A stretch of 64,000 nt of DNA, taken from positions 10,664,001-10,728,000 of the forward strand of contig CM120640.1 in the NCBI GenBank assembly GCA_051362555.1. Reading direction: 5' to 3'. The notes below the pieces were generated by a model that worked only from the letters and a program-made list of their open reading frames with translations, did no database searches and had not been told where the DNA came from. Made by a program: the position numbers and the translations under genes. This DNA is from Lingula anatina (Eukaryota; Animalia; Brachiopoda). This document shows, one piece after another, positions 1,763 through 15,541 of this stretch (positions are counted from its first letter, which is position 1; every line of letters begins with the position of its first letter).

Positions 1763-4700
1763 CTACTCTCCATGATATATTTTTTGCGTTCTAAGAGTGC
1801 CGTTTTTAGTAATTTTTTCATATGGCTTGGCAATTTCCTTTCTCTTGTTGTATGTTTGATGGTAGAAATTGCCAAAGAGAACTATGTGGGAGACCATGTA
1901 GAGGATGAGAGCTGCATTGTATCCATTTGGGAAACCACAGTCCTTGTACATAGCGAAGCTGGTATGGAACAGAATAATTACAAATTGCAGCTGAAATTGA
2001 AGAATAAACAACTGTTAGAGTTCTTGGACAAGTGAAGATTTTAGTAGACATATATAACTGGTAATTTATTTTATAATGAAATTATTTTTCATTATGAAAA
2101 CATTTTTTCATATATAAAAAGTGATTTTTATAACATCAAGATAACACTTTACACAGTATAAAGGATGAAAACGACTGCAACAAAAATATTGATGTGGACA
2201 AAATGATTCTAAATATTATTATGATTATATAAAAATTATCATAAACCATAATGATCTTCAAAGCACTTTTCCAAATCTATATAATATGTGCTGCAGTCAA
2301 ATAAGGACTCCTCACAGGACATGCTTAGTCAAAACAGTCAAAAGCTATTCTTGTTGGAAGATCATAACATGAGCTGCACAGCAGGAATCAAGTAGTCCCC
2401 CCCCCCTCCCATAAATTCATAGAAAAATGTCATCTTTTCCCCATAGAAATCATGGCTCACCAACTGCAGAGATGTCATATACTTCTTCCACCATAAGTAT
2501 TTTTGCATATGTGGACCAATGGCAGACAGTCCATAGTAAGTGTACATCAGAATATGGATCAAGCTGTTAACCAAGGCAGAAAAATAGGCTGGAATAATCA
2601 AAGCAGTAGGATGATTCCATTCTTGTTACATATTATTTACTGGTCAATTTTCAAAAAGATCTGTACAAAGAAAAGGTTAGCAGTGTAATCTTCTTTACGA
2701 CTGATGGAAAAGATGGGTCTGACAGCTAGTATACTCACATTCGCCTCCTGGTACAAACTTGACTCCAATCCACCATAGTAACACCATAGTAGAGTGATGG
2801 TACACATGGAGGAATGTTATCTGATTGTTCTTTTTTCGCAGGATGAAGAAAAACTTGAATGAAAACAAAAATAAGTATTATTATTTTGTAATTTATAAAA
2901 GTTCTCCACACCAAAAGACAACTCGGTTTTTTATTAATAAAATAAACGAACACATAAAAGTGTGCAGCATTTGAGTTACCTCGACAACACTGAATCAACG
3001 AATAATTAACATAAACATGTGTCAAACATTTTTATTGGTAATATAGAACAGCGTTTTCTAATTCATGGCCTGCCGGGTGTTTTTAGTCAATTCCATTGCT
3101 CTTTGTTCTGAACAATGACTACGGTACTCCAATTTCTTATTTAGTTTTGCAATATGAACTTACTGTGTCCATAAACTCAATTATCTTGGAAAAGAAATAC
3201 CACCAGCATACATTAGCCAACTACAAAATAAATAAAATAAAATAAACAATCATGTTAATTAGTCATGGTTATTACAGAGTGCATGCATACCAAATGAAAG
3301 AAAACATGGCTTTATTTAAATGGTAATTAGTCTCAAGGGTAAGACTGGGTTCCCATGCCTAGAACGAACCATCTGGATTGGTCTAACTCCCTATGGAGTC
3401 TCACTAAATTGCTATAAACTTAACTGGCTTAATTGTCTGTCACACCTACTGAATCAGCTAGGGGGTAAAGATCATTACCCCTAACAGCTTTACTAGGCGT
3501 GACAGACATTTAAGCTGGTTAAATTGATAGCAATGTAGTGAGACTCCCCAGGGAGATAGATCGATCCAAATATCTGTGGGAATGGTCCCTAAGCATATAC
3601 ATTTTATCATAAGACTTGTCTGATATGTGAATATATAGTAAGTCGAGGTGTTAAAAAAACAACAACTTGAGATATTTACTGAAATGCAAATATTTGCAGA
3701 CATCAATATATAAAACTCTGGATAATACTCAATCTTGTTTATCATGATAATTTTCTATCTTACGTTTAATGCATTTATCTTGGTACCTGACATTTCCATA
3801 TTAAAATAGGACATAACTTTAAACAGGACATGCTGGCAAAGAGATGAAATTGAGTTTTTTATGAGAGTATAAGCTACTTACTCTAATTGCCATGGGATCA
3901 TCTTTGGTATCCACTGGTTGACATACCAAGCTAAAGCTGGCATTCAGTGCAGTACTTGCAAATATCTGTAAATGCAAAATTGTTTTGCCAAATACTAGAG
4001 TTGAATGTTGCCTTAATCTGTGACATATTTTACTTGCAAAACTAAACTCTGTGGAAATAAATGATCTAATTTTGAAATCATAATTCACGAGCACAGTAAT
4101 TCATGGCATTGTAGTGATCCGTTAATTAGAACTGAATCTTCTAAATTTGCATACATCAGATATGTATATATTTGTACGTTTTAATTATTCAAATATACTT
4201 AGACATGACATGTTGCATGGCAGTTTAAGAGAAGTTCATTTAAAATGCAAATTAAGATTTAATTTAAATGTATCTACAATTAAGTTAATGTACATAGGCA
4301 TGGCATGTTTCATGACAGTTATGAAAGCTAATTTGAAATGCAAATTAAGATAGAGTATAAAGGCAGTGACTGAGCCACAGAGACAGATGGACTTACAGAC
4401 TGAGAGAGTTAGAGATAGTTATAGATACGGTAGAAGAGACCTGAGTCTTCAGGCGCTTGAATAAACCATGTAACAGAAAACTATTCCTGCCTGTCTCAGT
4501 TGACTTACTGGTGAAAATGTAACTCTTAGAACAAGTGTATAACCACCGACTGGTTATTACAAATGGCGAGCTCCCAGGTTTCACCTTAAGCAGCTGAGAC
4601 AGAAAGGCAGTTTATAGTCAAGATGCTGTATGAAGACGAAGACCAGTATGAAGACCCAGACATCTACAGCAGGCTGTTAGATTGTCTGGGTGGAATCAGT

Positions 4701-7305
4701 AGTGTTCTGAAGACGCAGGAAACTAGCAAAGAAGATGCACTTTTATTGTCAAATTCCCTTGCAAATCTGTGGGAAGTTATGAAAAAAGAAACAACAGAAT
4801 ATGACGATGGAAACAAACTATCTTTCGAAGCAATGATAAGCAGCATCCAGATAGAAGTGGGGCAGAGAAGCACAGTGGGTGAGGACAGCTGTGATGAAGA
4901 GACTGCAATAGGGAAAGAAGTTAGAGAGAGGATCCAGAGCAATGAGGTTGTGATTAGCGGTGTTGCTAACAAATCTCCAAAAGAAGAATTCCCTGGTGCC
5001 GAGATGTTGCAGCTCCCCGATGGAGGCAACGATGATGTGGTCAGTGACGTTGCTGACAAAGCAAAATCTCCCGAATTTGAGATTTTGAAACCCCTTATGA
5101 CCAGTGGTGATTCAATTTCTGATGTATTAAATTCCCCTGATGCAGAAATGTTCCTGTTCCCTGATGAAGAGAGGTTGTCGCTCAGTGATGCTGAACTGTT
5201 GAAGTCTACTGATGATAAGATGATGAAGTCTCCCTGTGAGAAGATGATGAAAACCCCTGATGTCGAAATGCTGCGCGTTGAAGAAATGGCCACCAATAAG
5301 ACCAAACTGATTGAAAATGAGTGTTACCATGAAGACAACGAAGAAAATGACGAACAAGCGAAGGAAAAGATTGAGCAAAAGAGATACTATGGGGACAATG
5401 ACGGAAATGATGAACAAGTAATGGAAAAGGAAAAACTGCATGTTGGAGAAACGGACAATGATAAGACCAAACTGTTTGAATATGTGTGTTACCATGAGGA
5501 CAATGAAGAAAATGACGAACAAGTGAAGGAAGAGAATGATCTGCGTACTGAGGAAAGGGACAATGATATGGTGAATTTGAATATACCTGCTTATTACAAG
5601 GATAAAGACAGAAATGAAAAACAAGGGAAGAAAACGAATGACTTGTTTGATGTTTTAGAAAGTACTGAAAAACCTCACTTGAAAGGTATAGAGAAATGGA
5701 GGTACCCACCTCATTGCAAAATAAGGTATTTTTCTAATAAGTAAGTTGTCCATGAGTAATTTTTAATAATTATTTTTTCTTTTATTCAATGTATAAAATA
5801 AAATGGAGGTATCAACTTCTCTGGAATTTTTTTCAATAAGGCTAGGATATTGGCCTAAGATTGATTTTCATGAAATTTTCTGTTAATTTTTGTATGTGGC
5901 ACTTTCCTTTATTTGCATCCAATTTTTTTAAAATGCATGCACCAGTTTTTATGTTGTGAAACGTGTACTATCTATTGACTGATTTAAGTAAAAGATGTAA
6001 GGCAGTAAGATTTTTATTTTTAAATGTGTGTATGTCTATGCAAAGCTAAAGTATGTATAAAAGTCCTTAAATGCTTATGTAAAGCTATAGTTGTTTTTTT
6101 ATTGTTTAAATTGTTAAAAATTGGTTAAATTTGATTAGAAGATAATCATGTACTTTGTATTATAGCTTAACATTCTGTTAATTACAGTGTATAAACAGGT
6201 GTCAGTGAAATAGGTTTTAAAAAAAATTAAGTTTCTTAATTTTTTTTTCGGTAAAAAAGGGAGATATATGTGTAGTGATCCGTTAATTAGAACTGAATCT
6301 TCTAAATTTGCATACATCAGATATGTATATATTTGTACGTTTTAATTATTCAAATATACTTAGACATGACATGTTGCATGGCAGTTTAAGAGAAGTTCAT
6401 TTAAAATGCAAATTAAGATTTAATTTAAATGTATCTACAATTAAGTTAATGTACATAGGCATGGCATGTTTCATGACAGTTATGAAAGCTAATTTGAAAT
6501 GCAAATTAAGATAGAGTATAAAGGCAGTGACTGAGCCACAGAGACAGATGGACTTACAGACTGAGAGAGTTAGAGATAGTTATAGATACGGTAGAAGAGA
6601 CCTGAGTCTTCAGGCGCTTGAATAAACCATGTAACAGAAAACTATTCCTGCCTGTCTCAGTTGTCTTATTGGTGAAAATGTAACTCTTAGAACAAGTGTA
6701 TAACCACCGACCGGTTATTACAGCATGTGGTAGATAAATTTTATGCTTGTTTGCATTATTAGTCATAATGAAAAAGCATAAAACTTTTGCTCTATATTAT
6801 AATATTATAACACTGTTCTATGAAATTTCCTAATTTGAACAGAATTTCACATTCCAACATACCTCCCAAAACATGTATACAGATAGGAACACAAGGCCTA
6901 AATTATACACAACCAACACTTTGCTTAGTTTGTATGCTGGTCTGCTTTTCATCCATACTGGTCCCTTCCACACCAAGTACAAATACAGTGCAGTTGCTGT
7001 ATAAGATGGGATTGGACTGTCCATAAGAAACCATTCTGATGTCCTTGGATCTGCAGGAATTAAAGAAAATATTGATTATTATTATTTGTAGATATATCTT
7101 ATGTAGTTAAACAGTACATATAACTCGCCAATAGCTAGACAAATAACATATTTTTACAAGATACAGTTTCTGTAAAATGTACTTATATCATTTGCACTGT
7201 AACTGTTAAAAACTTGTGCGAGCAGTTGCAAAAGGAGAATAAGTTAAAATGTTTTATTTGCTGACCTGATAGAGACATGATTCCACTGTAGAGGTCTCCC
7301 ACCAT
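1763..7305 (-). CDS. Very-long-chain fatty acid elongase, ELOVL4/ELOVL8-like, 279 aa, 7 coding exons
   Basis: Coding exons on -: 7305-7266 ([13 protein letters not shown]), 7050-6863 (188 nt, [13 protein letters not shown]), 3965-3882, 3220-3164 ([19 protein letters not shown]), 2853-2739 ([16 protein letters not shown]), 2588-2461 ([17 protein letters not shown]) and 1990-1763 (stop TAG). All junctions are GT-AG with consistent phases, totalling 840 nt. ELOVL motifs KxxExxDT, HxxHH, NxxxHxxMYxYY and TxxQxxQ are present. Confidence 0.95.
3343..3589. mobile_element. Palindromic MITE (family E)
   Basis: Long imperfect internal inverted repeat (GGAGTCTCACTAAATTGCTAT...ATAGCAATGTAGTGAGACTCC) with TAA-like flanks. 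A second copy lies at 36424-36671 and a split copy at about 44078-44192 plus 48580-48685. Confidence 0.75.
4110..4561 (+). repeat. 5' LTR
   Basis: TGTAGTG...TTATTACA, TATA-like TATAAA at ~4356, AATAAA at ~4460; near-identical to 6271-6722. Confidence 0.93.
4623..5744 (+). CDS. Intact 373-aa acidic, internally repetitive orphan protein carried by the LTR element
   Basis: Single uninterrupted ORF starting 62 nt after the 5' LTR. It is D/E/K-rich, with KSP-x-x-E-type short repeats and a duplicated block [23 protein letters not shown]. AATAAA follows at ~5797. Confidence 0.7.
   Translation: MLYEDEDQYEDPDIYSRLLDCLGGISSVLKTQETSKEDALLLSNSLANLWEVMKKETTEYDDGNKLSFEAMISSIQIEVGQRSTVGEDSCDEETAIGKEVRERIQSNEVVISGVANKSPKEEFPGAEMLQLPDGGNDDVVSDVADKAKSPEFEILKPLMTSGDSISDVLNSPDAEMFLFPDEERLSLSDAELLKSTDDKMMKSPCEKMMKTPDVEMLRVEEMATNKTKLIENECYHEDNEENDEQAKEKIEQKRYYGDNDGNDEQVMEKEKLHVGETDNDKTKLFEYVCYHEDNEENDEQVKEENDLRTEERDNDMVNLNIPAYYKDKDRNEKQGKKTNDLFDVLESTEKPHLKGIEKWRYPPHCKIRYFSNK
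6271..6722 (+). repeat. 3' LTR
   Basis: Near-identical to 4110-4561, followed by TSD GCAT. Confidence 0.93.
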
Positions 7306-10899: not shown

Positions 10900-13172
10900 A
10901 TGATTGAAGTGGTAACAGACACGTTTAACCATCTCTATGAAGGTTACCTATGGACTTTATCTATTGCAGGTATGAATAACAAAGCGGGTTTACAAAATAT
11001 GGTGAAGTTGCACTGAAATTTGACAGAATTTTAGAGAAAAATATCCGTGGATAGCATCTGTCACTTTCTTTATGCTTGTTTGTTTGTTTTTGTTGCACCA
11101 GACTGCATAGTTTTTCATAATTGTTTACCTTATACTCCTCCACGTCCAACAAAATCTTGCTTCTTTTACAAGAGAAGAGATTTTATATTTAGGTTATTCT
11201 TAGTTTAAGAAATTTATACAACTGCATTACTGCTGCCCCCCCCCCCCCCAAAAAAAAAAAAAGGAGAAAATAATGTTGAAAAAAATATTGACTTTGAGAA
11301 CCCATTTAATAAGTCATGTCAATAACATTTTCAGATGAACGAGTTGCTGACTGGCTTCTTATGCAGTCACCTCTTCCAACTTTGGGATTAGTTGTTTTAT
11401 ACTTATTCTCCATATGGAGTGGAATGAAGATAATGAAAAATAGAGAACCTTTCCAGTTAAGATGGGCTATATTTTCATACAACCTAGCTTTGGTTATACT
11501 AAACTGGCACATATGCTCAGAGGTAAGTCAAATGCAGAAAACAGCATGCATAAATAATTTGGGGGAGGGGGACTTGTATATATCTAACTTAACTGTTCTT
11601 TTAAAAGTTTTAGACTGTTTTTTATAGGATGTGTTATCATCATCATGATAAGTAAAAACAATAGTGATGAAGAAATGGTCTGATTATCTATATTTTCTTT
11701 CTTTTATTTTCAGCTTTTTAGTGCCTCCTGGAAATTGAATTATAGCTACTCATGTCAAACAGTAAATTATTCATATGACCCAGATGAAATGAGGGTAAGT
11801 CGATTGTTTTGCAGCATGAGATGAGTTTTCATCAATAAAGTGTTTGTACTGGTATGTGAAGTTATTTTGAAAACATAAGAATTTAATTGGAGGTAATTTT
11901 TGAGACACTTGGTCTTCTATCAAGATAATGATCGAAAAGCATTAGCTTCTGAACTTATATTGTGCACACAAAGACCTATTTATGAGAGAATATAATATTC
12001 CAGAATTTGACACAAAAATTCTGATGTTGAAAAGTTGCAGAATGTACATTAAATGTATAATTTGCATTCATTTTCATATTACTGCATAACACTTTCAAAT
12101 TTCTTTATTTTTTCAGATAGCTAAAGCCCTTTGGTGGTATTATTTTTCAAAGTGCATTGAATTCCTAGATACCATCTTCTTTGTCATGAGGAAGAAGAAC
12201 AATCAAGTATCATTTTTGCATGTATACCATCATGCCACCATGTTTCCAATATGGTGGATCGGTGTAAAATGGGTTGCAGGAGGTCAATGTAAGTGTATGT
12301 TTTTAAAACAGAAAGAAAACAATTCGCCTTAATGTGAGAACCAGGCCGCAAGATGATCTTTGGCATTTTTAGCCGAAAACCTACAAAACCCAACACTATA
12401 ATACAATGGGAATCCTCTTATGATGAAGGCAAAGTAAATATTATTCTAAGTAAAGTCTGATGGATTTACCTTTTAATACATATTAATACATACAACCCAC
12501 AGAACATTTCCAATAAACATTCTCAAAATGACACCAGAAAGCAAAAAAAAAAGAAAAAAATCAAATCAACCAGATAGTAAACACAGACAGGCCTTGCCAA
12601 TTTCAACATTTGTTTATTACAAACAGAGTGCTTTTCATGCATGCGCAGTTATTTAAATCCTGAGCTTATGTTTTTAAATTCTGGAGAACATTAAGTACAA
12701 TAAGTAATTAACAGTTATATTTCAGTTTATTACTGTTTTGTATTTTGATTTCCCACATTATATCCATATTTTATGGAGTTGCAAAGACGATCTTATCTGA
12801 ATTAATAGTTGATAGATTCTCTTTTTCTTTTCAGCATTCATGGGTGCAATGATTAATTCATTTATTCATGTAGTGATGTACACATATTATGGAGTTGCAG
12901 CCCTAGGTCCTGAGTACCAGAAGTACTTATGGTGGAAGAAGTATCTCACCAAACTACAGCTGGTAAGGGAGGTCTGATGGACATTGTTTCATTCGATCTT
13001 TAAATGTTTTATTTAATTGGGTATATTAAGCAGTCATTCTAGAACGTTTTTGTTATTATTATTATTATTTTATAAAGTCCATATTTTTATATAACACTAT
13101 ACTTAAGCATGTCTTTGTTACATATCATTTTCATGAATGTTTTACAGTATGCTATCCAAGGACTTAAAAAAA

Positions 13173-13263
<91 letters not shown>

Positions 13264-14409
13264 TATTAATATGTTTGTTGATATGAGGAGTAACTTGTGG
13301 TTTACCATTATGTTTCTTACTAACATCTTTAACTATATTTTATGCCAAACAGCTTGTAGCATTAAGGCATTCTTCAGTAACACAACTGCACTTTGCACAA
13401 TGCTTGTCTAAGTTGCTTAGGGGTATTAATATATAGAGAGTTCAGGAAGAGTGAAGGTTGCATGCTTGTTTCTGTTTTCTGCAGATCCAATTTTTTGGTG
13501 GGATGGTTTATGCAGTACAAACACTTTATGTTCAGTGCAAATACCCTCTCTGGATGACCTACACTTCAATGGGATATGGGGCCACTATAATTGCACTCTT
13601 CCTCAACTTCTACATACAAGAATATGTTCATAAAAAGAACCTCAAGGTAATTTTAGGTGTAGAAGCTTGCTTATTTTTAAATCAATTTGTTTCTTCTGTG
13701 TGTAGATACAGTTTGTGGTTGGCATGGCCCATGCAGCACAGTCACTGCTCCTACAGTGCCCATTCCCCTTGTGGATGCAGGTGGCATTGATTCTCTATGG
13801 AGGCTCAATTTTGGGCCTTTTCCTCAACTTCTATTTCCATGCCTATATCAAATCCAAACGAGATAAGCAGGTAGATATGATGTATTTTAAGACAGAATTA
13901 AACACGTGATTGTATCTATAAGAATACATTGTCATTTGTGAAGGGCATTTGATGATCAGTTGACCAATAATTACTGAAAATTCTGACATTTGTGAAATTT
14001 TTATTGTTAATTTTTCAAAATGTACAATTGTTATATGTTTAACATTATGCAGAATTTACAAAATTGTACCCTTTATATATGTGTGTATATATATGTGATA
14101 AAATTTTTGAAAAGGGACAATTTTTTCCAGTGTAGTAAGTAGCAATGTATATCTGGTCATATTCACCCTTACTTGATCCCTGATTTAATAAACTTTTCAT
14201 GCAAATTAGTTGTTGTACTATCTTGAAAAGCAAAGCTTTATACCATATCTTATAAGAATTATTACTTTTTCCAGTATAAAACCCTGCATACAAATGGCAA
14301 GGGAGACACTAATGAAGGACATATAAATCAAAATGGTCACAGCACAAATGGACATGTGAAGAATGGATATATCAAGAATGGACATATGGCATCAAAAAAA
14401 GAACAGTAG
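10900..14409 (+). CDS. ELOVL4: Very-long-chain fatty acid elongase ELOVL4-like, 311/312 aa, with alternative exon 6a/6b
   Basis: Coding exons 10900-10969 ([23 protein letters not shown]), 11335-11522 (188), 11714-11794 (81), 12117-12288 (172; [20 protein letters not shown]), 12835-12962 (128), then 13485-13646 or 13706-13870, then 14275-14409. Exon sizes 188/81/172/128 match the ELOVL4 layout as I recall it. The C-terminus KKEQ is a KKxx ER-retrieval signal. Confidence 0.95.
12330..12665 (+). mobile_element. Fragment of a dispersed DNA element shared with 52740-53005
   Basis: Shared sequence such as ACACCAGAAAGCAAA...TCAAATCA...TTTGTTTATT.CAAACAG...TGCATG.GCAGT. Confidence 0.55.
13190..13261. 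repeat. (TA)n microsatellite preceded by poly-A
   Basis: Direct reading of the sequence. Confidence 0.95.
13485..13646 (+). CDS. ELOVL4: ELOVL4-like alternative exon 6a (TM6-TM7)
   Basis: ttttctgcag/ATC...AAG/gtaatt, 162 nt, phase 0/0; [54 protein letters not shown]. Confidence 0.85.
13706..13870 (+). CDS. ELOVL4: ELOVL4-like alternative exon 6b (TM6-TM7)
   Basis: tgtgtgtag/ATA...CAG/gtagat, 165 nt, phase 0/0; [55 protein letters not shown]. Confidence 0.9.
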
Positions 14410-15541
14410 AATGTCACTTTTGTGAAGTATTCTTTATGTTCTAGCTGACTGTAGGCTGCAGTATTGTATACCCATAAAGATTTTTTTCATAGTGAATGCA
14501 AGTCCTAAAATTCAGGAACTTTTGCATGTTATTTTAAGCAATCCTTTTTGAAGCAGTGATATCTGTGCACAACTCTGTCAAGCACATGATCAACTTTATG
14601 TGAACAGTTGCAGCCTCTACATTATGAAATATTTGTTGTTAATTGATATAAAACTAGTTTTATTTTTTTTTGTAAGCAATAATTATTTTTAAATATTAGT
14701 GGATAGCATGATTTCTTTTTTATGTGAATGGAAAATCCTGTTTTTAAAACTTCTTGCGGTATGTTTCATCTTCCTGTTCATGACTTTGCTTTTGAGATGA
14801 GTAGGTGAAATAAAGGGCCCAGTGTGTCAGTGTATAAGTCTTCAAATAACGTACATGTCTTCATGTATGTAAGCAACTTTGTCAATTCTGTGAACAGATT
14901 ATCTAGTCTATTGAACAATTATCTTGTATGATATTTTTTATGATGTTAAATGCAAGCAAACAAAATCTTTGGCAGTTACCTTTGTCTCAGTGCAATTCAT
15001 GATTAAAACAGAGATGCACTCAGAGAGGCCAGACCTCCATCAAGGTAGCTCAGTTCTCATTATTTACTAATTTTAATTAATCAATTAAAATTAAATAATG
15101 GATCAATGGAATCAAAGCAGTTGTAAGTTTGGTACTCTCTGACTTTTCTGGAAATTTTAATTAAAATCTGCCCATATCCTTTTGAGTGAAGCCATCAATT
15201 AACTTACCAACAAAGGCAAAAATATAACCTCCTTGGCAGAGGTAACAATGGTAGTTAAAACTTTTGTTGTTTGCAATTGTCAATAAATTTTGTCATACAA
15301 TTGTTCATACCAAGTGCATTATGTCAGCATTTTTTTGTTATCAATTTATTTAGAAACTTAGAATGTTAAATATGGCCAAGGATATCATGCCAAGAATGCA
15401 CAACCTATTTGTATTGCATTGTTAAAAAGTTCTTAGATGTACATTCCAGTTTTGTAACATGAGCATTTTCTTGTATTGATATAATACATGTATTTTTTTG
15501 TCATATTTAATAAATATTAAAAAATGAATTAGACCATATTA

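Follow-up and report, generated by a model that had tools for sequence, protein, structure and literature searches.

The window, a 64,000-nucleotide stretch of the Lingula anatina genome, carries on its plus strand an ELOVL-family gene, elovl4, in which the segment encoding TM6, loop 6 and TM7 is present twice in tandem. The gene name is the RefSeq label, our own tree being built from exon-6 segments only. The gene is laid out as follows:

10900..10969, plus strand: elovl4 coding exon 1 (spliced coding sequence equal to the RefSeq proteins P0021/P0023)
11335..11522, plus strand: coding exon 2 (spliced coding sequence equal to the RefSeq proteins)
11714..11794, plus strand: coding exon 3 (spliced coding sequence equal to the RefSeq proteins)
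12117..12288, plus strand: coding exon 4, with the HxxHH catalytic box (spliced coding sequence, HMMER alignment)
12835..12962, plus strand: exon 5, common to both isoforms, its end being the start of TM6 (spliced coding sequence)
13485..13646, plus strand: exon 6a, derived TM6-loop6-TM7 module with Tyr at ELOVL7 position 221 and Ser at 242 (10 reads joining 6a to 7, RefSeq X2)
13647..13705, plus strand: intron of 59 nt between 6a and 6b, with a candidate branch A at 13679
13706..13870, plus strand: exon 6b, ancestral-type module with His at 221 and Leu at 242 (39 reads joining 6b to 7, RefSeq X1)
14275..14409, plus strand: exon 7, terminal coding exon with the common C-terminal tail and dilysine end (junction reads, spliced coding sequence)

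Exons 1-5 joined to 6b and 7 give, letter for letter, XP_013410765.1 (RefSeq L. anatina isoform X1, P0021, 312 aa), and joined to 6a and 7 they give XP_013410772.1 (isoform X2, P0023, 311 aa); both elongase proteins are thus already in the databases as automatic isoforms. Exon 6b is 100% identical to RefSeq L. anatina ELOVL4. The products have the attributes of the elongase family: a PF01151 match of 230-234 bits, the HxxHH box, the loop-6 Cys and the seven-helix ELOVL fold. The same exon pair, with three residue differences, occurs at a second RefSeq Lingula locus, which is probably an allelic scaffold. A profile scan of the window recovered no third exon-6 copy within elovl4. Head-to-head with this gene lies a second ELOVL-family gene (7072 to about 1765, minus strand), in which TM6 is likewise preceded by a phase-0 boundary but exon 6 is present only once. 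One of its introns contains an element (about 4110-6720) bounded by direct repeats starting at 4110 and 6271, 393 nt of which are identical, with a 373-aa ORF (4623-5744) lacking any Pfam match; it looks like a recent non-autonomous LTR element.

Exons 6a (162 nt) and 6b (165 nt) both have AG/GT ends, phase 0/0 and open frames, and the coordinates, lengths and absence of stops given in the initial annotation hold on re-reading the sequence. Its hand count of about 26 identities in 54 residues is also what computation returns (26/54 aa, 58% nucleotide identity). Among the degenerate codons of residues identical in 6a and 6b, 12/23 differ synonymously, and tblastn matches 6a to 6b at an E value of 5e-15, far beyond chance. 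Two HMMER alignments place exon 6 at ELOVL7 residues 213 to about 266, that is TM6, the disulphide loop and TM7, and together with the structural model they bear out the earlier proposal that each exon encodes this whole segment. Adjacent homologous exons of the same phase and similar length, encoding the same protein region, are what tandem duplication of an exon produces.

Splicing was followed in 8 of the 9 RNA-seq runs under the species label (X1-X8), with about 6% or 25% of each run read. Exon 6a is joined to exon 7 in 10 reads from 3/8 runs (4, 2, 4 and 0 in runs X1, X4, X7 and X8; not listed in X2, X3, X5 and X6), and exon 6b is joined to exon 7 in 39 reads from 7/8 runs (7, 5, 1 and 0 in X1, X4, X7 and X8; 10, 8, 6 and 2 in X2, X3, X5 and X6). 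Each exon is therefore spliced to the constitutive exon 7 while skipping the other: elovl4 splices in 6a or 6b alternatively, as had been claimed, and the 6a reads in three runs speak against the dead duplicate that the initial annotation had named as a possible outcome of such a count. No 6a-6b joint is listed in the eight runs, at low depth and a listing threshold of 3 reads. Since the depth at the end of 6a equals the ten 6a-to-7 reads (runs X1, X4, X7 and X8), none of the roughly 10 reads that leave 6a continues to 6b, with a 95% upper bound of 26%.

The reads were mapped to a stretch that does not include exon 5, so that joints from exon 5 to 6a or 6b are visible only as loose ends. Three reads of run X1 support the 5-to-6b joint, the tail of exon 5 forming a loose end at 13705, and no direct 5-to-6a junction was seen in the eight runs mapped in this way. 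In X2 and X3, polyA reads that cover the end of intron 5 (13350-13484) run on into exon 6a, which could mean that the 6a acceptor is spliced slowly, that the intron is retained or that there is an internal start. The existence of mature mRNA of the a type is supported by the RefSeq model and also by a-type ORFs, complete in length, on Logan contigs of 1.5-3 kb (P0004, P0006, P0052); these ORFs either cluster with proteins of oysters, mussels and scallops or are similar to them. Run X7 has both junctions, mostly 6a. Over 14275-15200, reads of X7 and X8 match the window at only 90-99% and carry numerous fixed differences and indels within the 3' UTR; these two runs possibly come from a different population, or from a cryptic species given the same name.

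How one exon is kept from joining the other is suggested by the intron between them. At 59 nt it is the gene's shortest by a factor of three, the other six measuring 191-546 nt, and the A of a TTTAA motif at 13679, a candidate branch point, lies 33 nt from the 6a donor and 27 nt from the 6b acceptor; both the separation and this branch A had been described correctly. Indeed, setting aside the last 2 nt before the 6b acceptor, all As of the spacer fall within 39 nt of the 6a donor. Any branch point used would thus lie below the donor-branch distance of about 50 nt, derived from vertebrate introns (PMC5740500 and PMC7969005, available parts), under which the two sites obstruct each other, and the spacer would then likely block 6a-6b joining sterically. 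Exclusion enforced by a frameshift and nonsense-mediated decay (NMD) is ruled out because co-inclusion of 6a and 6b keeps the frame (366 aa); retention of the spacer leads to a stop at 13788.

In relatives, spacer length was measured through 14 read-through ORFs in which exon b was scored against 40 shuffles. Eight of these give spacers of 38, 43, 44, 51, 65, 65, 67 and 73 nt, with scores above all 40 shuffles; five have no exon-b signal, two of them running on for at least 93 nt (P0075) and at least 147 nt, and one is too short. The ORF of at least 147 nt is Elysia-like and matches the E. crispata a exon; so small a spacer is therefore common among relatives but does not occur in all of them. 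Moreover, Crassostrea virginica RefSeq X3 (348 aa) and Mytilus coruscus P0030 join a and b in frame, the former reflecting either leaky splicing or a modelling error. Further models concatenating both exons, with two extra helices, are P0003, P0046, P0047, P0048, P0188 and P0175 besides P0030; most are probably annotation errors, and several published gene models of this fused kind may thus be wrong.

The initial annotation had called the exons probably mutually exclusive, on steric grounds. The short spacer and its counterparts of 38-73 nt in eight relatives support that proposal, and the Elysia-like ORF and the C. virginica model weaken it. These same two observations, together with the M. 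coruscus a+b model, the in-frame a+b product and the spacer of at least 93 nt in P0075, speak for exclusion that depends mainly on splice-site competition, repressor proteins or RNA pairing, with a+b products cleared at the protein level, and some invertebrates do splice introns of 40-60 nt. We consider such a non-steric basis unlikely, though to be taken seriously, as the spacer is exceptionally short in this gene and in eight relatives, and as no stable local RNA fold was found (z +0.87) and the 25 longest inverted repeats listed all derive from an AT microsatellite, beyond which no competing pairings appeared in the Lingula sequence. Steric exclusion is in our judgement rather probable, and it is probably leaky.

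The exon pair is not confined to Lingula. Nine pairs of a and b proteins from eight species are identical outside the exon-6 core, those of Lingula (two loci), five Mytilus species, C. virginica and Mya arenaria, and the order a-then-b recurs in models of Tegillarca, Sinanodonta, Elysia marginata, E. crispata, M. coruscus and C. virginica X3. Proteins of the a type are also found in Magallana, Saccostrea, Ostrea, Pinctada and four scallops. Absence or disruption of 6a in relatives, which had been named as evidence against a functional pair, is thus not what is seen: the a exon is present in the bivalves named above and in Elysia. Compared with mollusc a, Lingula a shows 62-70% identity, and compared with mollusc b 45-53% (6/6 species); a tree of 30 exon-6 segments separates a from b with support of 95/89 (79/89 for the a clade alone, on 50 columns). 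Both the order and the a/b class identity are conserved across two phyla.

As a exons group with a and b exons with b across phyla, a single tandem duplication of one exon before brachiopods and molluscs split seems likely. That split dates from the early Cambrian or earlier. Independent duplications in the two phyla would be compatible with a tree in which Lingula a and b are forced together (p-AU 0.052, not rejected at 0.05), Lingula a being a long branch, but they would have to account for an a-a identity exceeding a-b identity in 6/6 species and for common diagnostic residues and order; an annotation artefact or a dead duplicate would have to account for the spliced 6a reads. We regard all three as highly improbable. 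The annelid, echinoderm and sponge proteins found have one His-type segment each, at loci L001 and L003 exon 5 is followed by a single exon 6 with no a exon in between, and none was found in the four loci from a metagenome scan. Two oddities were met: an a-type elongase ORF running without introns across the equivalents of exons 2-6 on a 24-kb contig (P0055), possibly a retrocopy or an intron-poor gene fixed for the a module, and a RefSeq isoform of Mizuhopecten (P0185, X3) that reads past exon 5 into a different C-terminus without TM6-TM7.

To define what the swap changes, we tabulated 13 a exons, 7 b exons and 5 single-copy outgroups by column, leaving out Elysia b (one-residue insertion). 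Only four columns share no residue between a and b, corresponding to ELOVL7 positions 216, 221, 242 and 250: 1) position 221 is Tyr in 13/13 a and His in 7/7 b, so that the earlier contrast of a His in 6b with a Tyr in 6a on TM6 proves to be class-wide; 2) position 242 is Gly, Ser or Ala in 13/13 a and Leu or Val in 7/7 b, this Ser/Leu column aligning to ELOVL7 Ile242 in both HMMER alignments; 3) position 250 is Ile in a and Leu in b. All five single-copy outgroups have His at 221 and Leu at 242, which argues that b is ancestral and a derived; 6b would be the original ELOVL4 module and 6a a re-tuned copy. The CKYP versus CPFP difference described earlier is not a class feature, as F and Y vary within a.

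Several lines of published work bear on these positions. The available part of the ELOVL7 structure paper (bioRxiv 2020.11.11.378570) names Ile242 among five residues lining the acyl pocket, places TM7 beside the proposed entry portal, describes TM6 and TM7 as a dimer contact in the crystal and, in that part, does not name His221 as catalytic or tunnel-lining. The TM6-TM7 region is reported to set elongase substrate preference (PMC10449689, available part), and single residues within it to change substrate range (PMC8042400 and PMC4746653, likewise in part). According to the same portion of PMC10449689, ELOVL5 G230 and ELOVL4 W246 lie five residues past the loop Cys, and ELOVL5 W231 and ELOVL2 C217 six. 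In every a and b exon the ELOVL4 W246 column is Trp and the ELOVL2 C217/ELOVL5 W231 column is Met; the ELOVL2-Cys/ELOVL5-Trp switch therefore does not differ here, and the analogy drawn to it in the initial annotation fails.

Might isoform a be a poor enzyme, with low activity or with a regulatory role and no catalysis, or might it exist in Lingula mostly as unproductive RNA? It lacks the TM6 His kept in 7/7 b exons, five outgroups and ELOVL7, 6a is the minor junction (10 versus 39 reads), and there are the intron-5-containing reads of runs X2 and X3. However, the residues listed as catalytic in ELOVL7 are either encoded outside exon 6 or retained by both isoforms (Gln214, Cys231 and Phe253 are present in both a and b), full-length a-type ORFs occur on the Logan contigs, and the isoform a model has the ELOVL fold (pLDDT 72, rmsd 2.1 to ELOVL7 6Y7F). 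This possibility appears improbable. The claim that both elongases have the same catalytic core stands, the proteins being identical outside exon 6.

A difference in substrate range between a and b can be predicted from the residues. The change of Leu to Gly, Ser or Ala at the Ile242 position, combined with that of His to Tyr on TM6, may leave the closed end of the tunnel wider or reshaped; the widening is judged from side-chain size at one aligned position. In that case the acyl-CoAs accepted by isoform a would be longer or more bent than those accepted by b. The isoforms could instead differ in stability, in dimer or complex partners (KAR, HACD, TER), in temperature optimum or in tissue use, the exons being conserved and mutually exclusive all the same; TM6 and TM7 form the crystal dimer contact, a and b have the same residue at the known chain-length position, and several of the a/b differences may face the membrane. 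That a named acyl-pocket residue is among only four fixed differences, with a large side chain replaced by Gly, Ser or Ala in 13/13 a exons, counts against this explanation, which we consider rather unlikely.

The alternative exon pair at this locus is real, is expressed and is deeply conserved. The combined reading, in which 6a and 6b are spliced either-or, descend from one duplication before the phyla split, are likely kept apart by a steric spacer and yield enzymes predicted to differ in the acyl chains that they accept, seems reasonably probable. More tentatively, and with somewhat less than even confidence, the pair may be a lophotrochozoan switch older than that split, exchanging the whole TM6-TM7 caliper, with a opening the Ile242 position to give a second elongase for very long or unusual (e.g. 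non-methylene-interrupted) fatty acids. If this is true, each published assay of a mollusc Elovl4 covers only one enzyme out of two, and the pair amounts to a natural experiment in chain-length measurement by elongases. Chain-length setting in ELOVLs is only partly understood, and here are matched natural pairs from many species, with about 260 of 311 residues identical, that point to the Ile242-equivalent residue. Assessments of omega-3 and very-long-chain capacity in farmed bivalves rely on single cloned cDNAs, so it may be of consequence which of the two exons a clone contains.

Ran et al. reportedly described, in 2019, Elovl4 isoforms a and b in Sinonovacula constricta, a razor clam; these may be this exon pair, assayed in yeast. 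The searches made here named no sequence from a razor clam. A literature search covering titles and abstract openings, mostly outside subscription journals, found no description of alternative TM6-TM7 exons in an ELOVL, and the available parts of PMC4550275, PMC13701199 and PMC8073319 hold nothing on the exon pair. In the available part of Surm 2015, C. gigas X1 and X2 are entered separately and without comment. The kind of splicing is already known and both isoforms are annotated in RefSeq; what we did not find described is the conservation across phyla, the very short spacer and the tunnel residue that differs by exon class.

Alpha-tropomyosin exons 2 and 3 are a case of exclusion by donor-branch proximity. 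The same principle has been put forward for OGDH exons 4a/4b (PMC7969005) and for 57/629 human clusters (PMC5740500), as far as the available parts of these papers go. Like OGDH 4a/4b, the elovl4 exons are a homologous in-frame pair in a metabolic enzyme, long retained, with a short conserved spacer and a candidate branch A less than 50 nt from the donor. Unlike in pairs of the OGDH type, where a distant branch point sits in a longer intron, the intron here measures no more than 38-73 nt in all, the branch point is a candidate only, and the module comprises two transmembrane helices of a substrate tunnel. With ELOVL4/GNS1-SUR4 elongases (PF01151; ELOVL7 6Y7F) the gene shares the HxxHH box, the loop-6 Cys and the seven-helix fold, but its TM6-TM7 comes in two versions, whereas single-copy relatives (the sponge, echinoderm and annelid models, L001, L003 and the neighbouring elongase) have one His-type exon 6. 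According to the available part of PMC11286186, a single Elovl4 is usual in invertebrates. Two variants with TM6-TM7 implicated in substrate range are also seen in ELOVL2 versus ELOVL5, teleost Elovl4a/b and Platynereis EloB/EloC (PMC11286186 and PMC4746653, in part); those, however, are encoded by separate genes, and the residue of the ELOVL2/5 switch is the same in both modules of elovl4, which are alternatives within a single gene.
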